Part shown: positions 26,052-48,648 of the stretch, piece by piece
How the letters are laid out: every line of letters starts with the position of its first letter
Numbering within the stretch: position 1 is the first letter of the stretch
From: a virus
Taxonomy: Duplodnaviria; Caudoviricetes
DNA length: 60,694 bases
Virus record (IMG/VR): IMGVR_UViG_3300044630_003799
Location: 1 to 60,694 of that record
Reading direction: 5' to 3' (one strand)
Translations under genes and position numbers: made by a program
The notes under the pieces: generated by a model
Database searches by the model: none
Told to the model about the DNA's origin: nothing
Seen by the model: the letters and a program-made list of their open reading frames with translations, nothing else

Positions 26052-26088
26052 ATAATATATTCCTTAAATTTAATTGTTAGCTTGTTAA

Positions 26089-26661
26089 TTAGGCGACTGA
26101 GGTCTCAAGGAATGAGTTGAAGTTTAGGAGAGTTAGTGTGCAGCCGTTTGTATCGGCACCACCCAAACAGATACCAACTTGCTTGGCTCCGCTTACGCTT
26201 CCGATTGAAAGCTCACCAGCGCCAGAGGTGTGAATCTTGGCTCCAGCGGCAGGAGTTCCATTGATACCGCTCAAAAGGAACATACCCTTAGTAGCGATAG
26301 GAACGGTTTGTCCAGGAATTACAGCGCCGATTTCAGCGGCCTTACGAGGATTGAACTTGAGTTGCTCACCATTTTCATCAAGATTCTTAACGTCTTGAAG
26401 AAGAATGCCGATTGGGGTATCAGTTTGTCCACAAAGTTCAACTGTGGCAGGAGCGTTAAATCTTGGAGAAGTAACGTTTCCGAAAGAAGCTCCAACCTCA
26501 GAGTCGAGAGTCAACTCATCAGTTGCTTTCCATCCTGATTGAATCTTGACTACTGCGCCTTTGTTGGCAATAGTAGCTGTAGTTAGGTCTGCGGTTTTAA
26601 AAGCGAACAATCCGATTACATCGTGTTCGCTAACTTGTCTAAATGGTCTTAGTGTAGCCAT
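26089..26661 (-). CDS. head decoration/cement protein
   Basis: 190 aa between protease and capsid genes; PIGILL..V.IATKG motif typical of decoration proteins. Confidence 0.6.
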   Translation of the reverse strand: MATLRPFRQVSEHDVIGLFAFKTADLTTATIANKGAVVKIQSGWKATDELTLDSEVGASFGNVTSPRFNAPATVELCGQTDTPIGILLQDVKNLDENGEQLKFNPRKAAEIGAVIPGQTVPIATKGMFLLSGINGTPAAGAKIHTSGAGELSIGSVSGAKQVGICLGGADTNGCTLTLLNFNSFLETSVA

Positions 26662-33313: not shown

Positions 33314-35140
33314 TTATATCATTCTTGGCGAAAAAGTAGATACTTCTTTTACTTTTGAAGAAGCTTCTAACTCAAAATAGAACTTTGTCGCCCAATTTGC
33401 TAACATTAATGTAGTATAATTATCTTTTCTAGCTCTATTAGGAGACATATCTCTTTTTAAATGTTGAGGTAGATCAAAGGATTGAGATCCTTTGGCAGAA
33501 GATTTTACTTCTATTAACGCGCATTGCTTTTTCGTCTGATATATAATATTATCTTGGAATTCAATGAAATCTAAAATAGATTCATGACCGACATTATCTA
33601 AATTAACATGACAAGAACTTTGTATATCAAAAGCTTCATTATTAGCAGAAGTTCTAGATGCAAACCAAACTTTTTTATGGTCAATACAAGCTTGTAAATA
33701 GTTATTTGCTTTACGAATGAAATCAGTAGTGAAATTTTGTTTAAAACAAATCGCGCCTTTTTCTACGTTATATTCTCTCGCAGCTTTGCGCGTCATGTTT
33801 ATATATTCATTTCCTTCAAGAGATGTATCAGCTTCAAAGAATCCTAAATTAATATTAGACTTCTTGAATAATTCACTTTCTCTTGCGCTATCAATAAACT
33901 GATAACCAGCATTATCAATGCATATCATGACTATATTAAAACTAGTCATCAAATAATGAAGATAAGTTATATGAGCTTTTAAATTACCACCAGCAACAGC
34001 GTAACCATGAACGAGAGTTCCTTGTTTACGCTCTTCATCTAATTCAAAAACAGACATAGCAAAATAGTCAGAACTTGGACTATTAGAAAAGCTTGGATCA
34101 ATTCCTAGAATATATTTAGTATTAGATTTTCCTTTGATTAATGTATATGGAGCTTCTCCATCAGGAATAGTGCATTCATGCATCTTTTTTGCGCTAAAAT
34201 ATCCATCACTACCATCAGTAAATTGAGCGCAATATTCTCGCAAAAATGAACTGTGAGAAGTGCCGCCATTTTGAGCTTCTTCAATGACGGTATTATCAAT
34301 CATGTGAGTTGGCAAAGCTTCATAACTCATTTGAGCTATAAAATAAGTAGCATCGCCTTTTTCATTTGAATAAATCTTATCGTTCCACTCTTTATAAGTT
34401 TTATATAAGTTCTCGAAAGTAAAAGACGCAGAAGATAAAGCGATCATCTTAGAAGTATTTGGAAAGACCATTCTTTCCGCTTCAGTCATATGACCATCTT
34501 TAATTAATTTATCCTCAATTTCTCTAATTTCCATACGCTCTTTCATGTTCTGAGGAGCGACAAGGAATGGCATCAATACAGTTTTAATAATATCTTCAGG
34601 TAATAGAAGATACTCGTCTAGTAATAGAATATTGGCGCGAAAACCACGAATCTTTTCTCCGTTGAGAGGTATGGCTGTAATGGAACCTCCATTAATTTGC
34701 CATTCATATTGATCGTTTCGTTTGGCTTTCACGCCGAAAGCTTGTTGAAGAAGTTCGCCGCCTTTTGAATCGACAATCTTCTCTAAATAGTTAAAAATAA
34801 AACGCGCAGTTCTAAATGTAGGGCCAGCAATTAGAATTTTTGTATTTGGTTCAAATACGCATTGCAAAAAGCAGAACACGCCACCAAGGAATGTTTTACC
34901 GCAACCACGGCCAAGAACATTCATGCAGAAATTACGGTTCATCATTCCTTTGAGAATCATCTCTTGGAATGGTGCGAGTTTTATTCCTGAAAGTAATTCA
35001 GTAGTAAATCCTACATTGTTTCTTAGAAACTTGGCGAGAGTAATACGAGCTTCTTTATCATCAAGTTCTCCTTTAAGAAGCTTATACTCTTCATTTAAAT
35101 CAGGAAAATCTGATTTATATTTGTCTGGACAGTAAATCAT
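33314..35140 (-). CDS. terL: terminase large subunit
   Basis: Walker A GRGCGKT, Walker B LLLDE, LSSA coupling motif, FLREYCAQF, nuclease ILGIDP and KDNY motifs. Confidence 0.85.
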   Translation of the reverse strand: MIYCPDKYKSDFPDLNEEYKLLKGELDDKEARITLAKFLRNNVGFTTELLSGIKLAPFQEMILKGMMNRNFCMNVLGRGCGKTFLGGVFCFLQCVFEPNTKILIAGPTFRTARFIFNYLEKIVDSKGGELLQQAFGVKAKRNDQYEWQINGGSITAIPLNGEKIRGFRANILLLDEYLLLPEDIIKTVLMPFLVAPQNMKERMEIREIEDKLIKDGHMTEAERMVFPNTSKMIALSSASFTFENLYKTYKEWNDKIYSNEKGDATYFIAQMSYEALPTHMIDNTVIEEAQNGGTSHSSFLREYCAQFTDGSDGYFSAKKMHECTIPDGEAPYTLIKGKSNTKYILGIDPSFSNSPSSDYFAMSVFELDEERKQGTLVHGYAVAGGNLKAHITYLHYLMTSFNIVMICIDNAGYQFIDSARESELFKKSNINLGFFEADTSLEGNEYINMTRKAAREYNVEKGAICFKQNFTTDFIRKANNYLQACIDHKKVWFASRTSANNEAFDIQSSCHVNLDNVGHESILDFIEFQDNIIYQTKKQCALIEVKSSAKGSQSFDLPQHLKRDMSPNRARKDNYTTLMLANWATKFYFELEASSKVKEVSTFSPRMI

Positions 35141-36066
35141 AACTTCTGTATATCATATAATAGCTGAAGATCGTAATTTAATGATATATCTTTATTGATA
35201 AATATCTTTTCTATCACTCTTACGCATTCTTCTCTTCCATCTACAAATAAAAACTGCACGTTCTTATATGTAGTCATTAATGTTCTGACTTTATGAAATA
35301 TAAAATCAGGATTGACTTTTGTATTTCTAGCTATATATGGAAGATAATTAAATCTCAGACACGTTGCTAAATCATTCTCAACTACCACAACAATAGAACT
35401 ATTATTCTCGGCGGCTCTTTCTATCTCCCGGCAAAATCTATCGTACCCTGCGGCTAAAGTTCCAATAAAATCCTTAAGCGACTTTCTTTCGATAAATGTA
35501 TTTCCAGAAACTTCTAAATTTTCAAAACAATAATCTCCAAAGTCTAATTTCTTTACTTGAGTTAACCTAGAAAACTCCAAAGGCTTTTGCTCTCTTGTAT
35601 CTACATATATACAATAATCATCAACTATAGAATCAATTAAAATCAGATCTTTTGGATTTAAAAACTTCTTTTCAAAGCCGTTATTGTCACAGTAATCATA
35701 ATAATCGCCAATAACAGTTTCTAAAAAGTTGATACTAGGAATTCCAGAAGACTTTAATTCTACTTGAGAGAATGGATATATAGACTTTTTCTTTTCTTGA
35801 CGTTTTTGCAACAAGCCTTTGCAGTAATCTCCAACTATTTTAGGGTCAGAAGACTTCGCCCATTTCTTAAAGTTTATTTTTGAATTAAAATCAGACTCGA
35901 AATACTGATCTTTATTCTTAAATTCAATAAGTTCACCAGTCAGCAAATCCTTACGAGGATAATAATGCTGATAATAATCTGATACTGAAATTTTATGAGA
36001 TTTTAAATGAGCATGTAAACTTTTATCATTATCAAAATCTTTATTACAGAACTTACAATTAACCAT
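35137..36066 (-). CDS. C2H2 zinc finger plus ERCC4/XPF-type nuclease
   Basis: CKFC..H...H at the N-terminus; VDTREQ, GDY and IERKS..DF motifs. Confidence 0.75.
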   Translation of the reverse strand: MVNCKFCNKDFDNDKSLHAHLKSHKISVSDYYQHYYPRKDLLTGELIEFKNKDQYFESDFNSKINFKKWAKSSDPKIVGDYCKGLLQKRQEKKKSIYPFSQVELKSSGIPSINFLETVIGDYYDYCDNNGFEKKFLNPKDLILIDSIVDDYCIYVDTREQKPLEFSRLTQVKKLDFGDYCFENLEVSGNTFIERKSLKDFIGTLAAGYDRFCREIERAAENNSSIVVVVENDLATCLRFNYLPYIARNTKVNPDFIFHKVRTLMTTYKNVQFLFVDGREECVRVIEKIFINKDISLNYDLQLLYDIQKL

Positions 36067-37139: not shown

Positions 37140-37829
37140 TTAATAAACGTCTATTCCGCCATTATGGATATTTACCTTTATCTTCTTGATAATAGCTTTT
37201 TGCATGTTCTTTATCTGCTTATATCCAGGATTTCTATTTTCTTCTGTACTCTTATATCCCATCTTTTTAGCCGCTTGCTTTTCTGTCATTTTCTTTATAT
37301 ACAACATTTCATATAGTTTCCATTCTAACGGCTTCAAAAACTTCTTCATCTTCTCGTCTAGATCTAATTTAAACTTATCTATATCAATAGAATCTTGATA
37401 ACTTGTATCGACGCAATTTTCTAAAGACTCAAAAGAGACTGGCATATTTAAATTATATGCATGCTTCTTATTTTTCTCCCATTCTTTGTATAATGGGCAA
37501 TTTGAACATTGTTTTCCGAACTTTTTGCACCCTTCATCTGGTTCAGCTTCTGGACATTGGGCGCAAGGTTTAATAAAATTCAGATAATTATTGCGGATTA
37601 AATTCTTTATCTGATTTGATATGATTCTATTTACCCAAGGAGCCAATGGCTTTTTTGGATTATAAAGATGCCACTTTTTATATATATGAATACGAATGAT
37701 CTGAGAAACGTCATCAAAATCTATCCAAGTTAAACTGGATAGATTCCATTTATTCCTTCTTTTACTTATTTCGTTGTCGATTATGCTTATCGACTCTTCG
37801 AAAGAAGGTGATGACTTTTTCTTTTTCAT
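37140..37829 (-). CDS. phage sigma-70-family sigma factor (probably late) with a Cys-rich insertion
   Basis: region-2-like DFDDVSQ...WVNRIISNQIKNLIR; region-4-like HTH TEKQAAKKMGY; CAQC..C..CSNC insert. Confidence 0.65.
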   Translation of the reverse strand: MKKKKSSPSFEESISIIDNEISKRRNKWNLSSLTWIDFDDVSQIIRIHIYKKWHLYNPKKPLAPWVNRIISNQIKNLIRNNYLNFIKPCAQCPEAEPDEGCKKFGKQCSNCPLYKEWEKNKKHAYNLNMPVSFESLENCVDTSYQDSIDIDKFKLDLDEKMKKFLKPLEWKLYEMLYIKKMTEKQAAKKMGYKSTEENRNPGYKQIKNMQKAIIKKIKVNIHNGGIDVY

Positions 37830-38244: not shown

Positions 38245-38964
38245 TTATTTCGAAGATTTTAGTTTATTAACGATAAACTTCACTATTTTTGATCGAACAA
38301 TGTCTTCTTCATCAAATGTGAATGTATATATTCCCATAGCTTTACTATCTTCATCAGAGAATAAATTAAATAATTCTTCAAAGCCGCCAGCTTTATTAGA
38401 TGGCAAATCTGTTTGCATAGGATCAGCAAGAACGAAACAGCGGCTAAATTCACCTAGACGAGTAAGAACTGTGACTATTTCTTTTTTTGTGCTGTTTTGA
38501 CATTCGTCGAGGATAATAGACTTTGCCGCCCAACTCATACCGCGAGAATAATTTATTGGATACATTGAAATGCGCTCTTCTTTTTCCAACTTGTCAACTT
38601 CGGCGCGGGGTAATAGTTCATCCAACTTCTCTAGAAACGGCAGATTGTAGAACTGAAGTTTTTCACTTGCATCTCCCGGCAAGAAACCAATCTTACTATC
38701 ACTACTTTCTACAGCAGAACGAATATATATAATATCAGAGACTTTTTTCTCATTTAGTAACAATAATGAAACATAAGTAGCAATAATGCTCTTTGAAGTA
38801 CCAGCGGGACCATTAACAAATATAATGCGAGTATCTTTATTTGTAGCTAAATCTATAAATGCTTTTTGTTTATCAGTCCATTTTAAAGCTCTAACACTTA
38901 AAGAGTCCTTGATTTTTTCTCTTTGAGATACTTTTGGAGACTCGTCTTTTTTCTTTTGTTTCAT
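38245..38964 (-). CDS. phoH: PhoH-family ATPase
   Basis: GPAGTSKS (variant Walker A), IGFLPGD, RGMS, ILDECQN, LTRLG, QTDL and DIVRS motifs. Confidence 0.9.
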   Translation of the reverse strand: MKQKKKDESPKVSQREKIKDSLSVRALKWTDKQKAFIDLATNKDTRIIFVNGPAGTSKSIIATYVSLLLLNEKKVSDIIYIRSAVESSDSKIGFLPGDASEKLQFYNLPFLEKLDELLPRAEVDKLEKEERISMYPINYSRGMSWAAKSIILDECQNSTKKEIVTVLTRLGEFSRCFVLADPMQTDLPSNKAGGFEELFNLFSDEDSKAMGIYTFTFDEEDIVRSKIVKFIVNKLKSSK

Positions 38965-39046
38965 CTTATGTTATTGTAGTATTATAACGAATAAATAGAT
39001 ATATATTAAAATTACTATATGTAATAGGCGATTTCTCAGAAAATAC

Positions 39047-39282
39047 TACCCCGTATTTTTCACCCATCAAAGAATATAGAAAATACCACTTTCTTTATTT
39101 TTTCAAAAATAGGGGGGTATATACATATATTTAATTATAAACATAGATACAAGAGTAATTATTTTATTCAGAGAGAATATAGTATATACAAAAGAGATTA
39201 TTGAAGATGGGGAGAATGAAGTTAATCCCCTCCCCCCTGTTACTCAAAAGTCAAGTCTAAAATTTTTTGGAAAATGGGGGGG
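39047..39282. repeat. C-run/G-run inverted repeats at the boundary between late and early regions
   Basis: TACCCCGTATTTTT (39047) / AAAAATAGGGGGGTA (39105); CCCCTCCCCCC (39227) ... GAAAATGGGGGGG (39270). Confidence 0.5.
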
Positions 39283-39283
39283 T

Positions 39284-39320
39284 TGGCATAGGGCTTGCTA
39301 TAGTAGCAAGATGTATGCCA
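39284..39320. promoter_or_regulatory. head-to-head pair of sigma54-type -24/-12 boxes
   Basis: TGGCATAGGGCTTGCT (+, 39284) and TGGCATACATCTTGCT (-, 39305-39320). Confidence 0.7.
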
Positions 39321-39339
39321 AGTGGCGTTTTTTGACCAC

Positions 39340-39364
39340 AAAAAAAACCTCCCTTTCGGGAGGT
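39340..39364 (-). terminator. intrinsic terminator
   Basis: ACCTCCC-4nt-GGGAGGT hairpin plus T-run on the minus strand. Confidence 0.8.
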
Positions 39365-39386
39365 CTGGTCTTGACTTTCTAGTGTC

Positions 39387-39824
39387 TCAATCTGCGACGT
39401 TGACGACGTTTTCCATCTTGAAAAGTAGAAACTCGGGGTTGTCCTTTTCTGGAGTATAGGAACGAATCGTTTCTAGTTCCTTTGGCGTGGCTTCGCGGCC
39501 ATCGACAAGGTATCTGGTCGTTAACTTCGCGGAGCTAGGCAATGCGGCAATGTAAAGCTCACCTGTCACCTTGTGGCGAACAACGCCATCCTTAACCCAT
39601 TCCCACCACGTTGGCTTTCCGACAGGCTCCCGGCCTTCCTTTTCCAATCGGCGACCGTAAGAACCAATTCCTGCGACATTGGCGATGATTCGATGGTCCC
39701 TTGTGACTCGCCCCGTCAAAGGGTTGACAGGAATGCCAGAACGCCCCCCCTTGTTCATCTTATGCTCCCCCTGAAGGAGAACCGTTGCAATGTGTCCCGC
39801 TTTGATAGTGTCGATGTCGATCAT
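39387..39824 (-). CDS. hypothetical phage protein (likely start MIDIDTIK)
   Basis: GC-richer coding; TTGCAA-17-GACTCT promoter upstream; own terminator. Confidence 0.6.
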   Translation of the reverse strand: MIDIDTIKAGHIATVLLQGEHKMNKGGRSGIPVNPLTGRVTRDHRIIANVAGIGSYGRRLEKEGREPVGKPTWWEWVKDGVVRHKVTGELYIAALPSSAKLTTRYLVDGREATPKELETIRSYTPEKDNPEFLLFKMENVVNVAD

Positions 39825-40040
39825 GTTTTCTAGTGTTACGTTGTTTGCATTAACAACGTGGAAAGAGTCGCATGGGGCGAAAGAGTTTGCAACGGGTTTT
39901 TTCACTTTTCTTTTGGTAATCAATGTCCAGGCCATTAGGTAATCAAAAATACTTGGAAAAAACTATTCAAAACATCTTGACGCTCCGCCCCGTTTGCTTC
40001 ATGCTATGCATGCAAGATAAGCAATAAACAAGACAATAAC

Positions 40041-40271
40041 ATGGAAACTCCAATGGAAAAGCTTTGCAACTCTGAAATCTTCCAATTACAACAAGGTCTC
40101 GTTCTGAGAATCGAAGAATTAGAAACTCGCGTGAAAGAGTTGGAAGATATGAAGATAAATAACAACGAAATGTTAGACGTTCTGAAATATTGGCAAAAGG
40201 ATTTGAAAGAGGCTATAGCACTAAAGGAAAGATTTGACACTTCGTACAACGTAACATTCAAAAGGTATTAA
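40041..40271 (+). CDS. small coiled-coil hypothetical protein
   Basis: downstream of a TTGACG-17-CATGCT promoter. Confidence 0.6.
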   Translation: METPMEKLCNSEIFQLQQGLVLRIEELETRVKELEDMKINNNEMLDVLKYWQKDLKEAIALKERFDTSYNVTFKRY

Positions 40272-40272
40272 T

Positions 40273-40455
40273 ATGAAAGTTGAATTGTCAGGAATAGAAC
40301 TTGCTACTATCCGCTTGTCATTAATGGAAAAGATAGAAAAGGCGGAAGAATGTATCAAAATGTTACAAGATACAAATAATAAAGAATCAGAAAAGTTTTG
40401 GCTAGATATCAAAGAAAGTAATAAAAACTTGCTAGAAAGACTATACAAGATTTAA
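40273..40455 (+). CDS. small hypothetical protein
   Basis: tightly packed after the previous ORF; followed by a hairpin terminator at 40466-40494. Confidence 0.55.
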   Translation: MKVELSGIELATIRLSLMEKIEKAEECIKMLQDTNNKESEKFWLDIKESNKNLLERLYKI

Positions 40456-40509
40456 CACAAGGCCTGGGCTGTAGTAATACAGCCCTCCCTTTTTGTTTAT
40501 AAATAACGC

Positions 40510-40715
40510 AGAGTTGCAACCTGGGGGGTGGTCTAGCATAAAGCATGCCAACCTCATGTTGGCATAGAACTTGCTAGGGGGAATGAGAGTTGCAAGTCGG
40601 GGGGTGGTCCACCCCCCACTTTGCAAGTCTAAGTTGGCACGAAAGATGCTCCCCAGCAAAAAGTGTGCCAAGTCAAGGTTGGCACGATAAATGCTCCCCA
40701 GCTTAAACCATGCCA
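40510..40715. promoter_or_regulatory. composite element: one half and one full TTGCAA/G-run hairpin plus six sigma54-type boxes
   Basis: boxes at 40535(-), 40560(+), 40635(+), 40655(-), 40680(+), 40700(-), all GG-N10-GC; full hairpin at 40586-40631. Confidence 0.75.
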
Positions 40716-40855
40716 ACCTCAAAAAAAACGCGAAATTTATTTTCTTTTTTTTCTTGCTTTTCGCTTTTTGTTTTCCCTTTTTCCCAGGTTTTCGACCCCA
40801 AAAAAAACGCAAAAAAAAAGTAGACAGGAAAACGGTTTTGCCCTACCTTAAAACC

Positions 40856-41200
40856 ATGCAAAACGAATTGAGCGCGGAAAACGAAATGTCGGCCCTTGCA
40901 AATGTCTCTTTTGTTGAGACTGAAATCGAAAGGGAAACTATGTTTGAACACGGGTTTTATCACAAGAAAATTGTGTTGAATTATGATAATACAATTGTTT
41001 ATGTTGTGTTTGACACTTGTGAAGGCGAGTCTTTTGTTGAATCGGCCATTTATGATAAATCTGGTTTATCAAATGAAGATATCGAATGGATTGATAGTGA
41101 GATTGAGTGTTTCTCACAAGATTGGGCCGATAATTACAATAAAGGAATAAAGGAAGAAAACGAAGAATATTACGCTCTTGTCCGAAAAGGTATCGAATAA
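40856..41200 (+). CDS. acidic hypothetical protein (leaderless start MQNELS)
   Basis: TAGACA-17-TACCTT-6-ATG; the longer ORF call from 40691 runs through regulatory DNA. Confidence 0.6.
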   Translation: MQNELSAENEMSALANVSFVETEIERETMFEHGFYHKKIVLNYDNTIVYVVFDTCEGESFVESAIYDKSGLSNEDIEWIDSEIECFSQDWADNYNKGIKEENEEYYALVRKGIE

Positions 41201-41210
41201 ATAAAACAAA

Positions 41211-41242
41211 AAAGGTCGCTCTGATAAAACGGGGCGACCTTT
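41211..41242. terminator. hairpin terminator
   Basis: AAAGGTCGCTC...GGGCGACCTTT. Confidence 0.65.
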
Positions 41243-41282
41243 AATAAAACAAAAAATTAAATAAATAAATAAATAATACAAT

Positions 41283-41516
41283 ATGAAAAACGTTTCTATT
41301 CAAGACATTTCCTTCAAATACAACGAATATGCTGATATTATCATTGCGTTAAACGACAAAATCGAAGCAATTAATTTGTCAATTCAAACGGCGCAAAATC
41401 TAAATGTTCAGACTTCTGTTCAATATTGGAACGGGCGTAAAGCCGAAATAGTTAACACTAAAACTCGATTTGAAGAAATAATTAGAGCTATTGATAAAGC
41501 AACTTATAGCGTTTAA
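41283..41516 (+). CDS. small hypothetical protein
   Basis: ORF with an A-rich leader. Confidence 0.55.
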   Translation: MKNVSIQDISFKYNEYADIIIALNDKIEAINLSIQTAQNLNVQTSVQYWNGRKAEIVNTKTRFEEIIRAIDKATYSV

Positions 41517-41537
41517 TAATACAATAGCCCTGGGTTG

Positions 41538-41578
41538 TACTAGTACAACCTGGGGCATCCCCCCACTCTGCAACTCTA
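41538..41578. repeat. degenerate copy of the TTGCAA/G-run hairpin element
   Basis: ..GTACAACCTGGGGCATCCCCCCACTCTGCAACTCTA. Confidence 0.65.
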
Positions 41579-41737
41579 TTACAATAGTCCAGGCTATTTA
41601 TAAACACGACAAATCACTAAATATTACTATTTGTTAAATATCTGACAATCTTCGCCGATTCCTATTTGTCACTTTTAAGGTAAAATTTGCCCGAAAAAAA
41701 CCGTTGACTTTCTGAAAAACTAAAGTATTTTTGCGTC

Positions 41738-42118
41738 ATGAAAAAGATTTTCGCCCTATTTGCTCTGTCTATTTCAATCAATGCGGCTAACCTTGATCCG
41801 TTTTTTGCTGCCCTTGGCAAGGTAGAGTCAAGCGGCAATGCAAAAGCTATCAATAAAAAAGAATATGCTTTGGGTATTTATCAAATCCGCGCAAATTATT
41901 TCAAAGATTCAAATATTAAAGGAAGTCACGAAGATGTTTACAATCCTATTATTGCAAGGCGCGTGTGTGAATCCTATTTCAAGCGATATGCTCCCGAAGC
42001 GTATGTAAAAGGAGATTTTGAGACTCTCGCCCGTCTTCACAATGGGGGACCGTCTTTTGTCAAGCGCAAATCTTCAACTGATAATTATTGGAACAAAATC
42101 AAAAAGAATCTTTATTAA
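41738..42118 (+). CDS. secreted lysozyme-like muramidase (i-type/destabilase-like)
   Basis: signal peptide; VESSG catalytic Glu; G.YQI...Y..D and ARLHNGGP motifs. Confidence 0.7.
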   Translation: MKKIFALFALSISINAANLDPFFAALGKVESSGNAKAINKKEYALGIYQIRANYFKDSNIKGSHEDVYNPIIARRVCESYFKRYAPEAYVKGDFETLARLHNGGPSFVKRKSSTDNYWNKIKKNLY

Positions 42119-42277
42119 TAAAATAATATGAATAACGATAATTTTGATAAACTCTTTAATATTGTTTTGGGCCTTACTTGTATTAATGTTATTCTTGGCG
42201 TTATTGTAGTATGCGTGGCTCTTAATATTTTTTAAAAATTGTTTTGACTTGCGCCGTGTCAAGAGCAAAAATCACTC

Positions 42278-42463
42278 ATGACAAAAAATTGGACTCCGCG
42301 CTCTGAAAGATGGACAACCTCAGAGCGTCAAGAAAAAAAATTGCAAGCGCAAAATGCGCGGCAAATTCGGTGGATGTTCTGGCGTGAAAGTCAAGTGATT
42401 CGTGAACAAATCGAAAAAGAATTATCTGAAAAATTGATTGCAAAACGTGCGGCACTGGAGTAA
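42278..42463 (+). CDS. small basic hypothetical protein
   Basis: TTGACT promoter directly upstream; its 3' end encodes the next gene's promoter. Confidence 0.5.
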   Translation: MTKNWTPRSERWTTSERQEKKLQAQNARQIRWMFWRESQVIREQIEKELSEKLIAKRAALE

Positions 42464-42472
42464 ATTGTCCCC

Positions 42473-43114
42473 ATGCAAAACGAGATGACGGTCAAACAAG
42501 CGGTTGAGTTCGTGGGCGGGTTTTCTGCACCCAGCAAAATGCCTTGTCAAGGGTTTTCAATCCCGGCGTGGCTTTGCAAAACAGGAATGAAGCTTAGGAA
42601 TGTTTCCGGTTCTATCTGTTCAAAGTGTTATGCGTTAAAGGGTCGCTATGTTTTCCCCAATGTTAAAAATGCATTGATTCGTCGTGTTAATAAAATAAAT
42701 GATCCATTGTGGGTTACCGCAATGACAATTGCAATCAATGGTACAGAATCTTCTGGTTACTTTCGGTGGCATGATAGTGGCGATATTCAATCTCTAGAAC
42801 ATTTGACAAAGATTTGTCAGATTGCAAAGAATCTTCCTAACATTGATTTTTGGCTTCCGACTCGCGAATATTCAATCGTTGCCGAATATGTTAAACAGAA
42901 CGGCGCGTTTCCTGAGAATCTCACTGTGAGACTGTCTGCTCTTATGATAAATGGTCAACCTCCTTTTGCTATTGCAAATAGACTTGGTCTTGTGACAAGC
43001 GGTGTGTCTGACACTGGTTTCACTTGTCCTAGTCCGTCACAAGGCAATAAATGTTTGAATTGCCGCGCTTGTTGGAATAAATACGTTGCCAATGTTAACT
43101 ATAAAACGCACTAA
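42473..43114 (+). CDS. Gp88-like Cys-rich phage protein
   Basis: C..CSKCYA, FRWHDSGD and C-terminal CP....CLNCRACW motifs. Confidence 0.75.
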   Translation: MQNEMTVKQAVEFVGGFSAPSKMPCQGFSIPAWLCKTGMKLRNVSGSICSKCYALKGRYVFPNVKNALIRRVNKINDPLWVTAMTIAINGTESSGYFRWHDSGDIQSLEHLTKICQIAKNLPNIDFWLPTREYSIVAEYVKQNGAFPENLTVRLSALMINGQPPFAIANRLGLVTSGVSDTGFTCPSPSQGNKCLNCRACWNKYVANVNYKTH

Positions 43115-43116
43115 TT

Positions 43117-43326
43117 ATGATTCCCGTTTCTTTTGGTTACAAAGTTTCTGTTGAAATAGTTCGTGACATTGCAAATGATATTGCTAAAGTCAATATCCAC
43201 TCTCCACTATCTAAGAATAAAGTATGGACAATGCCTCACAGTTACAAATCTAGTCAATTCTCAGATTATCAAATAATAAATGACGCAAATTTCATTTCTG
43301 TTATGAATAAGCGTTTTCCTAAATAA
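43117..43326 (+). CDS. small hypothetical protein
   Basis: tightly packed ORF. Confidence 0.5.
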   Translation: MIPVSFGYKVSVEIVRDIANDIAKVNIHSPLSKNKVWTMPHSYKSSQFSDYQIINDANFISVMNKRFPK

Positions 43327-43327
43327 T

Positions 43328-43516
43328 ATGAAAAAGCATCGTTTAATTCGTTTAATAAAAGATCGTGGCTGTGTTATCACTAGAATGTTTTTGCCAAAAG
43401 ATACAGTAGTTTATGCAAATCATCTAGTCGAAGACGTGTGGTCCATCACACTTGGCAAAGATAATAACATAGCGATTTCTGTTTTAGAATACGAGCATTT
43501 TGAGTTTGTTGAATAA
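43328..43516 (+). CDS. small hypothetical protein
   Basis: tightly packed ORF. Confidence 0.5.
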   Translation: MKKHRLIRLIKDRGCVITRMFLPKDTVVYANHLVEDVWSITLGKDNNIAISVLEYEHFEFVE

Positions 43517-43634
43517 ATAATAACATGGAATTAATAGCAATTCTTTTGTTAGTGTTTTTGCTTTTAATGTTCGCGCCAAAGAAAAAATAATACGCGCCCT
43601 GGTTAGTGACAAATCGCTGTTTATAAACAGCGAC

Positions 43635-43682
43635 AGAGTTGCAACATGGGGGGACCCCCCTACCCCCTACCTTGCAAGTCTA
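43635..43682. repeat. TTGCAA/G-run hairpin element
   Basis: AGAGTTGCAA-CATGGGGGGACCCCCCTACCCCCTACC-TTGCAAGTCTA. Confidence 0.8.
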
Positions 43683-43800
43683 CCACAAATTGCGACCGAT
43701 GTCAAGCATTATTTTTGATTAATCGAACGTATTTCCAGGTACTTAATTAAAATTTGAAAAATTCTTTGACTCCTTCGATTTTCCCCTGTAGTCTGTAGAC

Positions 43801-43986
43801 ATGAAAATTAAAACTGAAATTGACATTAACGACATTGTTGTTCTGAAGATCGCCCTTGGCAACGCTGAACGGCGCATTAACGAACTCATGAATGACAAGC
43901 CAGACTGGCGCAAGCTTTATGATCTTGACAAAGAATCTGTCGAAAAAGCGAAAAAAATTGTTGCAAATCTGGTCGCGAACAGCTAA
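43801..43986 (+). CDS. small hypothetical protein (leaderless)
   Basis: TTGACT...TAGTCT-6-ATG. Confidence 0.6.
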   Translation: MKIKTEIDINDIVVLKIALGNAERRINELMNDKPDWRKLYDLDKESVEKAKKIVANLVANS

Positions 43987-43995
43987 GATCTTGTC

Positions 43996-44190
43996 ATGAA
44001 ATACGAATTGATCATCGCGACCGACACTTGCGACAGTTTCTTGAATTACCCACACACTCGCGAAGGTCTTGAAAAAGCTTTTGACAGAGTGAACAAAGTA
44101 AGGTCAAAAGACGGCTTTCAATATGCGCGAATCATTTCAGACCGAGATGGCGAAGTTTTCGCCCTTGACATGAGCGTCACAATAAATTAA
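43996..44190 (+). CDS. small hypothetical protein (leaderless)
   Basis: TTGCAA-17-TAAGAT-6-ATG. Confidence 0.55.
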   Translation: MKYELIIATDTCDSFLNYPHTREGLEKAFDRVNKVRSKDGFQYARIISDRDGEVFALDMSVTIN

Positions 44191-44377
44191 TTTTCTCAAT
44201 TTTGTGTGGCATGGTGCGTAGGGAGATCCTACGACAGGGAGTTTTTTCAAGCTGTATCTTGACTTTTTGACCCGCATGAAACACCACACATTCTCCTTTT
44301 TATTGCAAAAAAAAATTGACATTGCGCCAAAAATGATCTAGTCTTTTTCCGTTGGTTAAAAAAATATTGCTAAAAAA

Positions 44378-45229
44378 ATGAAAAACACAGTCAAAAATGC
44401 GATCCGTCACCTTGTCACAAAAGCTTACGAAGTTTTTGCAAAAGACAAAAATAATATCAGTGTTGTATCACTTCCCGGTAGTGTGTGGGAGTTTGAAACG
44501 TCTGTGATTAATCACAAAGATTTTGCTGATAATTTCAGCAAGTCTTACAATCTGGATATGCAACTTGCGGAGTGTGATAACAATATCTATGATAGTAATT
44601 TGCGCCCGATATCTACTTTGTTTCCCCATAACAAAGTGAGTTCCTATGCTCTTTCTCGGGACTTTGTTAAATACTACAATCAATACCTTAATACAGATAT
44701 CGTCAAAAAGGCTAAATCAGATAATATCTTTGCGTGGTTTGACTTTTGTGGTAATCCTACTACACAAAGCCTGGAATTGATTAACACTGCTATCGGCAAG
44801 AATGTTACTTATGTCTTCACTTTCAATACACACTGGCGTTGCGACACTAATGTTGATCGCGACGTTCTGAGCTTCGCGAAGTCTATTGATAATAAGCCTG
44901 TTGCAATTCACACTTTTATAGAGAAAATCGCTCTTAATGCTGGTTTGACAATTGTTTGGTCGTTTGAATACATCTCTAATCACAATCCCATGATTACTAT
45001 CTGTATCAGCAATGACGCAAATGTTATCGCTGAAAAGTCATTCAATATCAATACTGTCGCCTCTAAGGTGAAAAAGGTTAAAGTCATTAATAAACCTACA
45101 AAGCGCGATTTGTCCGCTGTTTATGTTGATGTAAAGGCAAAGGTTGATGATAAATCTATCTGTGTCAAGCACAATATCACTGTTGGAACACTCGCTGCTG
45201 TTAAAGCTTGGGTGACAATGGGTAAGTAA
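44378..45229 (+). CDS. hypothetical protein, possible SAM-dependent methyltransferase-like fold
   Basis: SLPG..E and FAWFDFCG motifs; TTGACA-17-TAGTCT promoter; terminator at 45250-45280. Confidence 0.4.
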   Translation: MKNTVKNAIRHLVTKAYEVFAKDKNNISVVSLPGSVWEFETSVINHKDFADNFSKSYNLDMQLAECDNNIYDSNLRPISTLFPHNKVSSYALSRDFVKYYNQYLNTDIVKKAKSDNIFAWFDFCGNPTTQSLELINTAIGKNVTYVFTFNTHWRCDTNVDRDVLSFAKSIDNKPVAIHTFIEKIALNAGLTIVWSFEYISNHNPMITICISNDANVIAEKSFNINTVASKVKKVKVINKPTKRDLSAVYVDVKAKVDDKSICVKHNITVGTLAAVKAWVTMGK

Positions 45230-45249
45230 TACAAATAGATAGTCAAATA

Positions 45250-45280
45250 ACTCCACTGTGAATAACAGTGGGGTTTTTTT
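45250..45280 (+). terminator. intrinsic terminator
   Basis: ACTCCACTGT...ACAGTGGGGT plus T-run. Confidence 0.75.
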
Positions 45281-45294
45281 GTTTATAAATAACA

Positions 45295-45342
45295 TAGACT
45301 TGCAACATGGGGGGAGGGGCATCCCCCCAACCTGCAACTCTA
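45295..45342. repeat. TTGCAA/G-run hairpin element
   Basis: TAGACTTGCAA-CATGGGGGGAGGGGCATCCCCCCAAC-CTGCAACTCTA. Confidence 0.8.
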
Positions 45343-45501
45343 ATATCATAACACTATATATATATCACTATACCCAGGTCTTATTTACATGTATTTCGGT
45401 AAAATATGGCAAAATTTGCCGATGTATTTAGATGTTTTATTTTAAAATTTGGACGATTTATTTAATAAAAAACCCTCACTATTTAGTGAAGGTTATTGTA
45501 T

Positions 45502-45987
45502 TTATTTCTTGGTTTGTTTTCTAGTACCAGTAACTTCGTACACTCCCCAATCAATCTTATTTACTCCAAATACATAATCTTCTGGAATAGTCAAATAATG
45601 TACTTGAATAAAGTGTTTGATGGCTCGCTTGGCGTTATTGTCTGAGTGATAACGCTTGCCGACAATCGGCGGAGAGAACTTAGTATTTTTGCGCGGATCT
45701 TTCAATCCCTTTTTCTCATTTCTTTTCGCGACCTTCGCCGCCTCTTTTGCAAGCATTCTTTCCTTGCTTTCTCGGGCGAGCTTGTTTCTCAACGCATTTC
45801 CACGAAGAGGCTTGACAGGTTCAGGGGCATCTGGATTAACTTCCTCGTCGTTCTTGAGTCCGCGACGACGTTCCCACGCCTTAAACTTCTCGTCGAAGTC
45901 TTGAAAGAGACCCATTGGAAGGTCAGCACCGCCGACATCCCACCACGCAAAAGACTGTCTAATAGTTCCGCGATATTGGTCACTCAT
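45502..45987 (-). CDS. basic hypothetical protein
   Basis: 161-aa K/R-rich ORF followed by a hairpin at 45466-45494. Confidence 0.55.
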   Translation of the reverse strand: MSDQYRGTIRQSFAWWDVGGADLPMGLFQDFDEKFKAWERRRGLKNDEEVNPDAPEPVKPLRGNALRNKLARESKERMLAKEAAKVAKRNEKKGLKDPRKNTKFSPPIVGKRYHSDNNAKRAIKHFIQVHYLTIPEDYVFGVNKIDWGVYEVTGTRKQTKK

Positions 45988-46044
45988 CTTTTTTTGGAGA
46001 TATAATTAGTAGAATAAATACAACAAGGAGGATAACAAATAATA

Positions 46045-46236
46045 TCATTCTGGCGGCAAAACTTGTTCAAACTCGACACTAGATCCACTCAGATCCCGAA
46101 TCAGTTCGCGACTAACACTATCAAGAGTGCGCCGCCCAGTCAACTGAAAAAATACACTCTCTTGTTTTTTATCTACAAATTTCTCACGGCGGACACCATA
46201 GATGTTCTGAGTATAATACTTAATTGTCATTTTCAT
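46045..46236 (-). CDS. small hypothetical phage protein
   Basis: QNIYG...QLTGRRTL motif seen in small phage proteins. Confidence 0.5.
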   Translation of the reverse strand: MKMTIKYYTQNIYGVRREKFVDKKQESVFFQLTGRRTLDSVSRELIRDLSGSSVEFEQVLPPE

Positions 46237-46277
46237 TTTTTTTATTCTTTCTGTTGTATAGTTTTTTGTTTTTGTGT

Positions 46278-46823
46278 TTAACGGTAGATGGTGGCAGAGA
46301 TTTGCGAAGTGACTTGAACAGTTGGAGCGTTGACGGTAACTTTTTCATATAGCTTTTTCCATCGAATCTCAGTTTTGCAAGTCATGCATTGATACTTAGC
46401 TCGGTTTTTCAAAATACGATTATGTTTAGTAGTAGAAATAAAAATACGGTCATTGCAATTACAAAAATATTGATGGCGAGTAACAACCTCGAAAGTGTGA
46501 CAGCGAGTTGGCTCTTGACCAATAACACGCATAACTTTCTCCCATTCACAGCCATGTGGTGCAATAGTATATCCATAAACATGACGCGCAATAAGGTGTG
46601 CAGCTTCGTGACCGGGAGTATCATTGATAAAAGCATCTCCATTGGCATGAAGCATATCATTGTTGAGAGCAATTTTATTCAAAAAACACTGAGCATAACC
46701 AGCGCGACGACCCTTCAGCTTGAAGCTGACCGTCGGGAAGTTGAAGCTCATGTTGTAAAACTTGGAAGCCATGTCGAAGGCTTCGTTGATTCGTTTGATC
46801 GCTTTCGCTTGCAGTTCAGTCAT
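46278..46823 (-). CDS. SprT-like zinc metalloprotease
   Basis: HEAAH zincin motif, PHG.EW..VM, C-terminal CNC/C..C Zn ribbon; leaderless start MTELQ at 46823. Confidence 0.85.
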   Translation of the reverse strand: MTELQAKAIKRINEAFDMASKFYNMSFNFPTVSFKLKGRRAGYAQCFLNKIALNNDMLHANGDAFINDTPGHEAAHLIARHVYGYTIAPHGCEWEKVMRVIGQEPTRCHTFEVVTRHQYFCNCNDRIFISTTKHNRILKNRAKYQCMTCKTEIRWKKLYEKVTVNAPTVQVTSQISATIYR

Positions 46824-46916
46824 GCGTTGACAATAGCACCTTGCAGTGTAAGGGCAAGGGAAAAAGTAAAAAAAGTGCGTCAAGCAAAAAAAATAATTTT
46901 CGCATCGACCTGGAGT

Positions 46917-47085
46917 TGGCACGGTTTCTGCCTGAGCAAGATGTATGCCAAGTAGAGTTGCAAAGTGGGGGGTAGGCTACCCCCCAAAGGGGGCAACTCT
47001 ATACTATACCATACCCCCAGAATCTTGTCAACACTTTAAAATATTTATTTCCAGGTTATTTGGCAACCTTGGCACGATCTTTGCT
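46917..47085. promoter_or_regulatory. composite element: sigma54 box pair, hairpin element and a single sigma54 box
   Basis: boxes at 46917(+), 46935(-), 47070(+); hairpin at 46953-47001. Confidence 0.75.
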
Positions 47086-47206
47086 TGTGTCGCCTCCAGG
47101 CTGTCGCGAAAAAAAACTTCGAAAAACTTCAAAAAAACCTTGCGGATATTTTCCCCATCCTATACCTTGTCCTCGTCAGTCAACATTAACACATTGCAAA
47201 AACATT

Positions 47207-48247
47207 ATGGCTCATCAAATTGAAGTTCGCGACATTCAAGCTGGCATCGAACAGGCTTGGCACGGTCTCACCAAGGTTGTCCCCATCGTCACTTTCGACG
47301 ATGCGTTCCCTTTCGAGATCGAACGCCTTCCGTTGCTGGTCGCGAACGACACTCCCTTGGAAGGCTGGTCGTTCTTCAAGTGCAGCGACGACGGCAAACC
47401 CGCTGGCGTTCCCGTGTTCGAATCGTACAACGCTCTTTCCAACGCTCGCTTCTGGGAGATCGTGCAGAATGCGGTGGGCGGTACGGGTGCGGTCATCGAA
47501 TCCGCTGGCTCCATTTACGACCGTTGTCGCCGGTTTGTGACGGTGAAGCTTGGCACTGACCTCGACACTTTCAATGTGGGCGGTCGCGAGTTCAAGAACC
47601 GCTTCAGCCTCCTCGACAGCATCGACGGCAGCACCAACTTCTACGGGGTCAACTCCTCGACCTGCGTCGTTTGCGCGAACACCTTCGCGGTCGTCATGGG
47701 CGACACCAGCGGCGAATTCCGGTTCAAGATCCGCCACTCCAAGAACCTCCTTCCCAAGATTGAGAACATGGAGAAGGCCATCGACCAGTTTGTGGGCGTG
47801 ACCGCTCAGTTCAAGAAGGCGTTGGTGATCGCGAACGAAATCCCCGTCACTCCCACCGATGCTCGCTCGCTGTTCGCTGGATGGGCAGCGACCGACACCA
47901 ACGGAATGTCCTCGCGGTCATTCAACACCGTCACCCGCCTGACTGAGCTTTTCAATCGGGGCGCTGGAAACAACGGCGAGACGCTCCTCGACGCCTTCTC
48001 TGCCGTCACCGATTACTATTCTCATGAGTCGAGCGGCGGCGCTGATCAACCCGGCTTCCGCATGAAGCAGACCATTTCCAGCGAGTTTGGGTCTGGGTCG
48101 CGCAAGAAGCAGGATTTCTTCGCGAACCTCTTCACCGCGAAAGGCAAGGAAGATCCGATCTTTCAACGTGACTCTTTCGACAGCCTCGTCAGCAGGGGGC
48201 GGACGGTGATCAAGACGATGGAAGAGATTGAAGTGGCCGCGAACTAA
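47207..48247 (+). CDS. DUF932/TIGR03299-like phage/plasmid protein
   Basis: AWHGL N-terminus; IESAG, DS.DGS, VVCANT, IRHS and AFSAVTDY motifs; TTGCGG-17-TACCTT promoter; about 60% GC. Confidence 0.8.
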   Translation: MAHQIEVRDIQAGIEQAWHGLTKVVPIVTFDDAFPFEIERLPLLVANDTPLEGWSFFKCSDDGKPAGVPVFESYNALSNARFWEIVQNAVGGTGAVIESAGSIYDRCRRFVTVKLGTDLDTFNVGGREFKNRFSLLDSIDGSTNFYGVNSSTCVVCANTFAVVMGDTSGEFRFKIRHSKNLLPKIENMEKAIDQFVGVTAQFKKALVIANEIPVTPTDARSLFAGWAATDTNGMSSRSFNTVTRLTELFNRGAGNNGETLLDAFSAVTDYYSHESSGGADQPGFRMKQTISSEFGSGSRKKQDFFANLFTAKGKEDPIFQRDSFDSLVSRGRTVIKTMEEIEVAAN

Positions 48248-48264
48248 GCCACAAAGTCAAACAC

Positions 48265-48290
48265 AAACCCACCGAAAGGTGGGTTTTTTT
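48265..48290 (+). terminator. intrinsic terminator
   Basis: AAACCCACC-GAAA-GGTGGGTTTTTTT. Confidence 0.9.
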
Positions 48291-48310
48291 GTTGCCCAGA
48301 ACCTGGGCTT

Positions 48311-48398
48311 TGGCATGCATCTTGCTGGGGGCAGGAATCGTGCCAAGTAGACTTGCAGACTGGGGGGTGGTGGGGGTTCCCCCTGACTTGCAACTCTA
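48311..48398. promoter_or_regulatory. composite element: sigma54 box pair plus hairpin element
   Basis: boxes at 48311(+) and 48330(-); hairpin TAGACTTGCAG...TTGCAACTCTA at 48348-48398. Confidence 0.75.
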
Positions 48399-48648
48399 AT
48401 ACAATTAACAAAAAAAATAGCCATATAGATTTTACTCTATACGGCATATCTCCTTATTTAATCTTTATCTGGTAAAATTTACTTCAGACAAGATCTAATT
48501 AGATTTATTACCCCTAAGATAAGTAAAGGAATTCCAATAAATATAGGAATTAAAATAATACCAAAAACTATTTGGAATAATGCTCCAGCTATATCTCCAT
48601 CTGAGCTTTTCATTATTTCGGTTATTTTATTTAAAATTTGACAAAAAC

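Follow-up and report, generated by a model that had tools for sequence, protein, structure and literature searches.

Repeated intergenic elements with G/C hairpins and sigma54-type boxes at the cassette borders of a variable region in a freshwater phage

Seven intergenic elements between small-gene cassettes

The window analyzed here comprises the entire IMG/VR record IMGVR_UViG_3300044630_003799, a linear stretch of 60,694 bp (~40% complete by estimate, ~34% G+C) from a virus of the class Caudoviricetes. Between its late operon and an arm that encodes a clamp loader and a purM-like protein, small-gene cassettes alternate with seven intergenic elements (E1–E7; 39.2–48.4 kb), which are the subject of this study. 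Such an alternation of self-contained cassettes with intergenic elements had been described in an earlier note on this DNA, and the seven elements are indeed located between cassettes that bear promoter-like sites and terminators. The elements are built from sigma54-type boxes, hairpins with G and C runs, and oriented CCWGG sites.

The sigma54-type box (TGGCAY-N6-TGC) occurs 13 times in the window, compared with an expectation of 0.73 ± 0.84, and none of 100 shuffles reached this number. All but one of the boxes lie within 39284–48345; the remaining match, at 49313, has a poor −12 part. The 12 regional boxes form three face-to-face pairs (39284+/39305−, 46917+/46935−, and 48311+/48330−), a back-to-back pair (40535−/40560+), a run of three (40635+, 40655−, and 40680+), and a single box (47070+). 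The hairpin-arm motif (AGASTTGCAA-N3-GGGGG, searched with up to two mismatches) has 11 matches, all within 40510–48397, where 0.07 would be expected. The absence of both motifs from the rest of the window, as claimed in the earlier note, therefore holds without exception for the hairpin motif (11/11 inside), whereas one poor box is found outside the region.

Six hairpins are present (40586–40631, 41540–41578 with a worn left arm, 43635–43682, 45296–45342, 46954–47002, and 48349–48398), together with a half copy (40510–40531). Their arms are two copies of the 10-nt word AGASTTGCAA, and in all six, G6 precedes C6 on the plus strand, irrespective of the strand of the neighboring genes. Four of the six fold better than shuffled sequences (z −5.6, −3.4, −3.3, and −4.4). 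The arms contain no informative compensatory changes; their conserved blocks pair, and their variable linkers are unpaired. The right arm was also considered as a −35 element with a downstream −10 element, which fits by eye only at 45333–45366 and fails at the other five copies.

CCWGG is not enriched in the window as a whole (28 sites versus 36.8 expected), and 15 of the 28 sites fall within 39927–48302. The site nearest to each hairpin is CCTGG on the left and CCAGG on the right in all six cases, which bears out the orientation reported in the earlier note; two of the 12 flanking sites are distant (526 and 722 nt). The combination of all three motifs, which the note had ascribed to the elements in general, exists only in E2 (40.5 kb), E6 (46.95 kb), and E7 (48.35 kb). 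It does not apply to E1 (39.3 kb), which has boxes and mere remnants of G/C runs, or to E3, E4, and E5 (41.55, 43.65, and 45.3 kb), in which a hairpin and CCWGG occur without a box. Near-identical stretches of ~40–65 nt are shared between copies of the elements; one repeat (40490–40531 versus 45276–45317) measures 42 nt at 88% identity.

E1 (39225–39330) consists of a C-run/G7 remnant and two face-to-face boxes (39284–39299, plus strand; 39305–39320, minus strand) and forms the border between the late operon, with the gene encoding PhoH (38245–38964), and the variable region. E2 (40490–40716) comprises a TTTATAAA block, the half hairpin (40510–40531), boxes at 40535–40550 (−) and 40560–40575 (+), the hairpin at 40586–40631, boxes at 40635 (+), 40655 (−), and 40680 (+), and a worn box at ~40700 (−). 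In E3 (41520–41607), two CCTGG sites are followed by the hairpin with the worn left arm (41540–41578), CCAGG at 41589, and a TTTATAAA block, and in E4 (43598–43739), CCTGG is followed by a short stem around TTTATAAA, a hairpin (43635–43682; z −3.4), and CCAGG at 43735. E5 (45276–45378) has a TTTATAAA block, a hairpin (45296–45342; z −3.3), and CCAGG at 45374. E6 (46909–47100) begins with CCTGG and a face-to-face pair (46917–46932, plus strand; 46935–46950, minus strand), followed by a hairpin (46954–47002; z −4.4), CCAGG at 47051, a single consensus box (47070–47085, plus strand), and CCAGG at 47096. E7 (48300–48445) combines CCTGG, a face-to-face pair (48311–48326, plus strand; 48330–48345, minus strand), and a hairpin (48349–48398) with a minus-strand terminator (48445–48420). 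E5 and E7 are situated between convergent terminators and have no promoter alongside.

Conservation of the elements and shuffling of the cassettes

The earlier note had proposed to examine whether the elements are conserved in relatives while the cassettes vary, and the comparison with two relatives (L010 and L023) across 38965–41335 shows that this is the case. Relative to L010, none of 56 positions in box cores has changed, compared with 4/56 in box spacers, 2/67 in the hairpin, 234/1361 in coding sequence, and 50/831 in other intergenic DNA. The corresponding values for L023 are 0/56, 1/56, 2/67, 39/1361, and 33/831. All seven boxes of E1 and E2 are retained in both relatives, whose E2 array is longer by exactly one 45-bp −/+ unit, a copy-number change like that of a tandem repeat. 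Among relatives whose large terminase subunit (TerL) is at least 88% identical, 10 of the 12 that reach far enough have a box at the position of E1 (4.17–4.48 kb upstream of the TerL start).

The breakpoints of homology coincide with elements. Six relatives extend 5.2 kb or more upstream of TerL, and in four of them (L032, L040, L046, and L052), homology to the window stops at 39278–39288, that is, inside E1. Of the other two, one retains the next gene; in the other, homology ends at 38940, ~285 nt short of E1, and picks up again in the GP88 cassette. A different, plus-strand cassette follows the E1 pair in four of these six relatives. A further relative (L124) has the cassette order B-x-D-C-F instead of the order B-C-D-E-F of the window; cassette D precedes C, and E is absent. 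Its nucleotide identity to the window is 71–75% in cassettes B, D, and F and 87–92% in C, its GP88 protein is 95% identical, and a G/C-run element is present at every cassette junction. Finally, in a lake-metagenome contig of run X13, the outer edge of E4 (43590) is joined directly to that of E5 (45367), the joint having a side of 52 letters; joints with a side of less than 30 (40820–43646, 46892–47035, and others) were left out of the count, and all runs aligned to the window are assembled contigs.

The proposal in the earlier note that the elements serve as recombination sites for the shuffling of cassettes is thus supported by their conservation, the breakpoints in E1, the permutation in L124, and the joint between 43590 and 45367. 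We infer that recombination caused the mosaic. The hairpin pattern was found in 16 IMG/VR stretches; L010 and L023 are the only relatives among them, and the other 14 are chance matches. A scan with the SprT protein found no stretch.

One contig of a gammaproteobacterial assembly (L137; 1,465 bp) consists of a single DUF932 cassette, whose protein is 87% identical to that of the window. Long polyC/polyG runs flank the cassette on either side, and its terminator is followed by a sigma54-type box. The contig may represent a circularized cassette, or the assembly may have broken at the hairpins.

Gene content of the cassettes

Terminator-like sites are found at 39366–39345 (−), 40466–40485 (+), 45249–45275 (+), 45494–45471 (−), 48265–48286 (+), and 48445–48420 (−). 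Two promoter-like sites (41704–41731 and 42244–42272) were computed, and the remaining candidate promoters were identified by eye. Most genes of the region belong to no family, but the cargo listed in the earlier note is confirmed by Pfam, which recognizes an SLT lysozyme, GP88, an SprT-like protease, and DUF932 among the small genes.

The region begins with a GC-rich minus-strand gene for a 182-aa protein to which no function is assigned (39387–39935; G+C content at third codon positions [GC3] 0.55), which ends at the terminator 39366–39345. Cassette A (39977–40485, plus strand) has candidate −35/−10 elements identified by eye, two genes (40041–40271 and 40273–40455), and the terminator 40466–40485. 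The plus-strand cassette between E2 and E3 (40821–41516) contains genes for proteins of 114 aa (40856–41200) and 77 aa (41283–41516), for which the family search found nothing. In cassette B (41704–42235, plus strand), the promoter-like site 41704–41731 precedes a gene for an SLT/Destabilase lysozyme (41738–42118), which begins with a signal-peptide-like stretch, and a hydrophobic open reading frame (ORF) of 35 aa. Cassette C (42244–43591, plus strand) follows with the promoter-like site 42244–42272, a 61-aa gene, GP88 (PF17338; 42473–43114), DUF7300 (43117–43326), a 62-aa gene, and a tiny hydrophobic ORF.

Cassette D (from 43766, plus strand) has the candidate promoter TTGACT-N17-TAGTCT (43766–43794, by eye) and genes at 43801–43986 and 43996–44190. 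Cassette E extends to 45275 on the same strand, with TTGACA-N17-TAGTCT (44316–44344, by eye), a 283-aa gene (44378–45229), and the terminator 45249–45275. Cassette F (45471–46822) is encoded on the minus strand and comprises the terminator 45494–45471, genes for proteins of 161 aa (45502–45987) and 63 aa (46045–46236), and the SprT-like protease (46278–46822). In cassette G (47139–48286, plus strand), a candidate promoter precedes the DUF932 gene (47207–48247; GC3 0.76), which is followed by the terminator 48265–48286.

The GC3 of the genes between E1 and E7 ranges from 0.22 to 0.76, compared with 0.11–0.26 in most late genes and 0.37–0.42 in the capsid-region genes (24930–26661); this spread is in agreement with a traffic of genes with phages of other composition. 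Different cassette genes share a near-identical start of 15–18 nt (ATGCAAAACGA...; 40854–40871, 42471–42488, and 43994–44011), and the ATGCAAAACGA-type start is also common to the first variable cassette of three relatives (L032, L033, and L040). Judging from these starts, the portable module may include the first codons of a gene.

Contigs from one RNA library cover 39365–39699, 40029–40400, 40897–41189, and 41307–41479, besides a few diverged pieces, and leave the elements uncovered; this cover consists of assembled contigs, its absence at the elements is uninformative, and carry-over of DNA is possible. An Rfam search of 38.5–49.5 kb at a relaxed threshold gave a single match at chance level (E 0.96), and the tRNA search found none.

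Boundary modules resembling PeSLs

There is a described precedent for elements of this kind. PeSLs are repeated intergenic modules of T4-type phages that join an early promoter to a stem-loop, "frequently polyG followed by polyC" (PMC2839356), and that are concentrated in hyperplastic regions ahead of ORFans (PMC2839356; PMC4122927). They have been reported from the phages RB49/phi1, T4/PST, and KVP40/nt-1 (Arbiol et al. 2010, PMC2839356; Comeau et al. 2014, PMC4122927), and a variant on the middle-promoter class (PmSL) has also been described (PMC4122927). Their stem-loops terminate transcription, and recombination between PeSLs gives rise to insertions, deletions, replacements, and mini-circles (PMC2839356; PMC4122927). 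The claim in the earlier note that no described phage element with this three-part architecture was known is too strong, because PeSLs already unite an early promoter, a polyG/polyC stem-loop, and shuffling (PMC2839356; PMC4122927).

The elements of the window share several features with PeSLs. They are repeated intergenic modules amid small ORFans of a hyperplastic region (all copies in 39.2–48.4 kb), and their stem-loops have polyG followed by polyC (six of six). In addition, the indels, replacements, and displacements that distinguish relatives begin and end at the modules. The cassettes have candidate early promoters of the sigma70 type, in part read by eye. By contrast, the phage is not a T4-type myovirus, separate intrinsic terminators are present, and promoter and stem-loop, which are fused in PeSLs, are separated by 84–190 nt (to the next candidate −35 element). 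The sigma54-type box pairs and the oriented CCWGG sites have no counterpart in PeSLs as far as the accessible parts of their descriptions go, which mention neither.

The cassettes of the window resemble those of integrons in that they are short, bounded by imperfect palindromes, and variable in content and order among relatives. Integron arrays consist of promoterless cassettes in a single orientation that depend on a common promoter and are exchanged at attC hairpins by the integrase IntI. The cassettes of the window have promoter-like sites and terminators of their own and lie on both strands, and their palindromes lack the core words of attC. Neither a tyrosine recombinase (PF00589) nor a Y1 transposase was detected in any of five related records (21–88% complete for the PF00589 search, whose controls were positive in 14 of 14 genomes). 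Integron-like shuffling, as envisaged in the earlier note, is therefore not supported; since no recombinase or transposase was found and repeats of 40–65 nt suffice, homologous exchange of the PeSL type is the preferred mechanism.

On balance, we incline toward the following explanation, which we consider, as a whole, somewhat likelier to be right than wrong. The stretch from 39.2 to 48.4 kb would be a hyperplastic accessory-gene region of a ~150-kb freshwater phage, made up of self-contained cassettes, each with a putative sigma70-type promoter (often 5–6 nt before the ATG) and mostly with an intrinsic terminator. The elements would be recurrent boundary modules that function as PeSLs do in T4-type phages. 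Their poly-G/poly-C stem-loop, next to a terminator, would insulate adjoining cassettes, and their near-identical copies (~40–65 nt) would provide the substrate for homologous recombination, by which cassettes would be swapped, deleted, duplicated, and reordered between co-infecting relatives. The sigma54-type −24/−12 sites within the modules would be read by the sigma54 RNA polymerase of the host, which would be bound without firing and could act as an activator-dependent extra promoter or as a parked polymerase at the boundary. The motifs, their confinement to this region, their conservation, and the breakpoints at the elements are shown by the data; that the hairpin terminates or insulates and that sigma54 reads the boxes is what we infer.

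Several points weigh against this explanation. The hairpins are not fused to promoters, from which they lie 84–190 nt apart, and the phage is outside the T4-type group. Canonical terminators already precede several hairpins, so that the hairpin would not be needed for termination, and for two of the six hairpins (E3, z −0.9; E7, z −0.6), shuffled sequences fold equally well. Of the 12 boxes, six are directed at no gene, and face-to-face boxes with a distance of 3–5 bp cannot both be occupied or fire productively. No activator was found in nine related records, seven of which are <70% complete (the other two, 80% and 88%), and a complete relative (G001) has boundary palindromes yet not a single box. 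Moreover, few relatives cover the region, the exact hairpin family was found in only two other contigs out of 16 pattern matches, and gene conversion rather than function could be behind the conservation of the elements.

Possible readers of the boxes

The resemblance of the boxes to sigma54 promoters extends to positions that the search pattern leaves free: all 12 regional boxes have a purine at position 7, T predominates at position 12, and 10 of the boxes have T at position 16. The sigma54-bound sites of Salmonella have the same appearance (PMC3844500). The boxes of the window conform to the sigma54 arrangement of a −24 GG and a −12 GC 10 nt apart (TGGCAC-N5-TTGCW), and a consensus of TGGCACG-N4-TTGCT is common to 10 box sets from phages of 35–63% GC. 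In the pairs, only the consensus positions mirror each other, whereas the spacers differ, which suggests that selection acts on two protein sites rather than on a stem.

Among the sigma54 sites of Salmonella and Escherichia coli mapped by chromatin immunoprecipitation, many are intragenic, antisense, or silent (PMC3844500, PMC4591121). The holoenzyme can sit at such sites without firing, as we propose for the boxes of the window, which likewise follow the consensus TGGCAC(G)-N4-TTGCT and have a distance of 10 nt between GG and GC. Unlike known sigma54 sites, the boxes are densely packed (12 in 9 kb), are arranged in face-to-face or back-to-back pairs and runs, and adjoin G/C palindromes at cassette borders; unlike in known sigma54 systems, neither an activator gene nor a recognized enhancer was found. 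A search of nine related records for bacterial enhancer-binding proteins (bEBPs; PF00158) detected no activator. Its two matches were rejected: one, below the cut-off, is a 318-aa ORF located where L121 aligns to the clamp-loader gene of the window, and the other is an 805-aa ATPase of the ClpA/B type. A sigma54 encoded by the phage itself (PF04552) was found in none of four related records. The gammaproteobacterial assembly that contains L137 encodes a sigma54 DNA-binding domain (228 bits), which is a weak hint at a sigma54-bearing host, because the binning of a 1.5-kb contig is no proof of a host.

An alternative that we regard as rather unlikely is that the boxes are true enhancer-dependent sigma54 promoters, with the palindromes as enhancers for a bEBP encoded by the host or by the missing 60% of the phage genome. 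DUF932, the SprT operon, the gene at 40856, and PhoH with the late operon would then gain a conditional second promoter. The strong consensus match speaks for this alternative, as does the orientation of six of the 12 boxes toward a gene start within 350 nt (39305− toward PhoH; 40560+, 40635+, and 40680+ toward 40856; 46935− toward SprT; 47070+ toward DUF932). A box precedes the ATG of DUF932 by 137 nt in the window and by 134 nt in L134, although the two proteins are only 34% identical. The centers of the hairpins and palindromes are 53–118 nt from the predicted starts, and sigma54 enhancers are typically located 80–150 bp upstream. L127 shows a palindrome, an A/T tract that resembles an IHF site, and a box in the textbook order of a sigma54 promoter, and the Pseudomonas phage YuA provides a precedent in that it carries sigma54 promoters (PMC10914365). 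However, half of the boxes face terminators or each other, the orientation of the boxes around the L134 palindromes is inconstant, and the cassettes already own sigma70-type promoters. No bEBP was found in the nine records, and an NtrC-like word has five matches versus 10.5 expected, none of them in the elements.

The boxes might also reflect a widespread use of a host enzyme by phages that has not been described: paired sigma54 sites next to cruciform-prone G/C palindromes might recruit the host sigma54 polymerase and park it where cassettes meet and ahead of the late operon, and the polymerase would act there as a protein insulator or switch. Alternatively, an extruded palindrome might mimic a fork junction, the form of DNA that sigma54 binds most tightly, and create a structure-dependent promoter that requires no activator; the double-stranded −24/−12 stem, which ends in a loop just past −12, could provide such a junction. 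The hairpin promoters of phage N4 and the single-strand promoter Frpo are comparable structure-dependent promoters. We offer both variants as a speculation that is, as a whole, rather unlikely.

It is unlikely, in our view, that boxes and hairpin arms are operators of DNA-binding proteins encoded by the phage, such as a global regulator that acts on scattered asymmetric sites in the manner of the phage P1 C1 repressor, whose operators are asymmetric. The occurrence of single, face-to-face, and back-to-back sites is what asymmetric operators would show, the four sub-sites of a pair are ~10–11 bp apart and thus on one face of the helix, and the hairpin arms are themselves two copies of a word (AGASTTGCAA), to which the word GYAAGTC of the L127 and L134 palindromes is related. 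Moreover, CCWGG, for which sigma54 has no requirement to our knowledge, accumulates near the boxes, in 2–8% of the sequence (5/28 in the lineage of the window, 5/15 in L124, 11/18 in L127, and 8/18 in L129), by eye often just upstream of a box. On the other hand, the site of a phage protein would be expected to drift with that protein, whereas an identical box is present in phages of 35–63% GC that have no obvious regulator in common. The free positions follow the sigma54 consensus, and the family searches found no DNA-binding family among the proteins of the modules. GP88, first noted in 8 of 24 array-bearing loci, was rejected as a box-binding protein; in 80 GP88 loci that span 738 kb, the box has 27 matches and a control pattern 9, and only two of the 80 loci have three or more boxes.

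Still less probable is an origin of the elements as selfish intergenic repeats without a phage function, comparable to miniature inverted-repeat transposable elements or repetitive extragenic palindromes, with an incidental or tolerated likeness to sigma54 sites. The shift in copy number by one 45-bp unit between close relatives and the fast turnover of the hairpins (L124, whose GP88 is 95% identical, has a different G/C palindrome) would fit such repeats. The intergenic mosaic of palindromic units in alternating orientation also resembles the bacterial interspersed mosaic elements of enterobacteria, which are mosaics of the same kind. Against this stand the unchanged box cores where adjoining genes differ by 17%, the retained position of the E1 pair in 10 of 12 relatives, the presence of the same box in unrelated phages, and the lack of a Y1 transposase or integrase in the five records.

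The T5 first-step-transfer region and the SPO1 host-takeover module, which the region resembles as a block of small early genes with host-type promoters and repeats (both known systems have small early genes, strong host-type promoters, and repeats), inspire a last alternative, the main idea of the earlier note, namely, that the region is terminal and enters first, with the elements as docking or stop signals for staged DNA entry or as a sigma54 sink. We consider it very improbable. In its favor are the early, host-directed kind of cargo (SprT-like, DUF932, lysozyme, many tiny proteins), the single polarity of the elements (G6 before C6 in six of six hairpins, irrespective of gene strand), and the many IMG/VR contigs of relatives that end within ~200 nt of E1 (L033, L036, and L042). 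Against it, each of the seven elements is spanned by contigs of run X1, and the counterpart of the region is located away from the ends in longer relatives (80.9–90.5 kb of 117.5 kb in G003). Assemblies are expected to break at repeats and in variable DNA, and recombination would equally preserve direct repeat orientation. The contig of G001 (158 kb, with terminal repeats) ends ~11.5 kb downstream of the TerL start, inside the equivalent of the late operon of the window, which suggests that its repeat reflects a circular assembly rather than a real end.

Boxes and palindromes in other phages

A scan for face-to-face pairs detected 19 viral stretches, and 17 of these (L104–L120; 2–12 boxes each) are new loci that no other search had brought up. 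One of the 17 (L105) seems to be related to the window, and a T4-type terminase is present in at least nine. Boxes are most frequent at DUF932 loci (77 in 144 kb; at least three boxes in five of nine loci). G/C-run palindromes are located near the boxes in only 3 of the 17 loci, CCWGG clusters near boxes only in the lineage of the window, and several other array-bearing phages lack CCWGG entirely; the three-part combination is therefore specific to this lineage. CCWGG is absent over 13–20 kb in L121, L134, L119, L109, and others (40–59% G+C), which suggests that these phages avoid a CCWGG-specific restriction system; the lineage of the window shows no such avoidance.

Boundary palindromes also occur with other promoter-like words. 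The complete relative G001 (158 kb) has no sigma54-type box, but its section L122 (G001:125000–144900) contains 6–10 copies of a ~85-nt palindrome, in which TTGACT-N17-GACAAT sequences are arranged face-to-face around a GC stem, at a spacing of 0.7–2.2 kb. L121 (G003:78000–97900) contains 7–8 copies of a near-perfect 46-bp palindrome of two face-to-face boxes (TGGCACGAATCGTGC), several of which are followed within ~80 nt by a strong promoter of the sigma70 type (TTGACA...TATATT). The boundary palindrome is thus what stays constant, and the promoter-like word within it varies by lineage.

Two distant DUF932 phages (L127 and L134) share a 27-nt inner palindrome of the GTAAGTCGTTGATAATCAAGGACTTAC type, which is located between box pairs and bracketed by GGGGCCCC runs (L127: 2545–2600, 3565–3625, and 5285–5380; L134: 7700–7800, 9240–9335, and 14768–14850). 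The word GYAAGTC of these palindromes also ends the hairpin arms of the window. In an unrelated phage (L117, 13100–13600), three DnaA-box-like TGTGGATAA words adjoin an array of 12 boxes and a GC palindrome with CCAGG inside it.

Genomic context and abundance

The late operon (104–38964, minus strand) encodes, besides PhoH at its head end, a T4-type TerL (33314–35140, minus strand), assigned by Pfam to Terminase_6N, and a sigma70-family factor of which only region 2 was detected (37140–37829, minus strand). The clamp loader and the purM-like gene belong to a minus-strand arm beyond 50.5 kb on the other side of the cassette region. The phage is not T4-type: of 10 late-operon proteins scanned, eight have no specific Pfam family, including those of 373 aa and 486 aa, and T4-like functions are limited to TerL and the clamp-loader-like protein. 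A megablast search against GenBank phages gave no match for the window. In IMG/VR, 306 TerL relatives were confirmed, and 18 runs from lake metagenomes contain at least half of the sampled words of the window.

Directly upstream of TerL, the operon encodes a nuclease of the ERCC4/XPF type with an N-terminal C2H2 zinc finger (35137–36066, minus strand). As a structure-specific nuclease, it could cut extruded palindromes or debranch DNA ahead of packaging. Many late genes have a GTGTAAT(A)TAAT-like word just before the start codon, which is a candidate late promoter.

Significance

The elements would carry the modular shuffling of the PeSL type beyond T4-type phages into a lineage of lake phages that is abundant and not related to them, and offer a concrete mechanism for the movement of accessory and possible anti-defense genes between phages. 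The sigma54-type boxes are conserved at the base level, confined to the variable region, and present as mirror pairs in unrelated phages. Boxes of this type in such modules were not found in print; the literature searches yielded only ordinary phage sigma54 promoters such as those of YuA (PMC10914365). If the boxes are read by the sigma54 polymerase of the host, they would represent a new kind of transcriptional interplay between phage and host.

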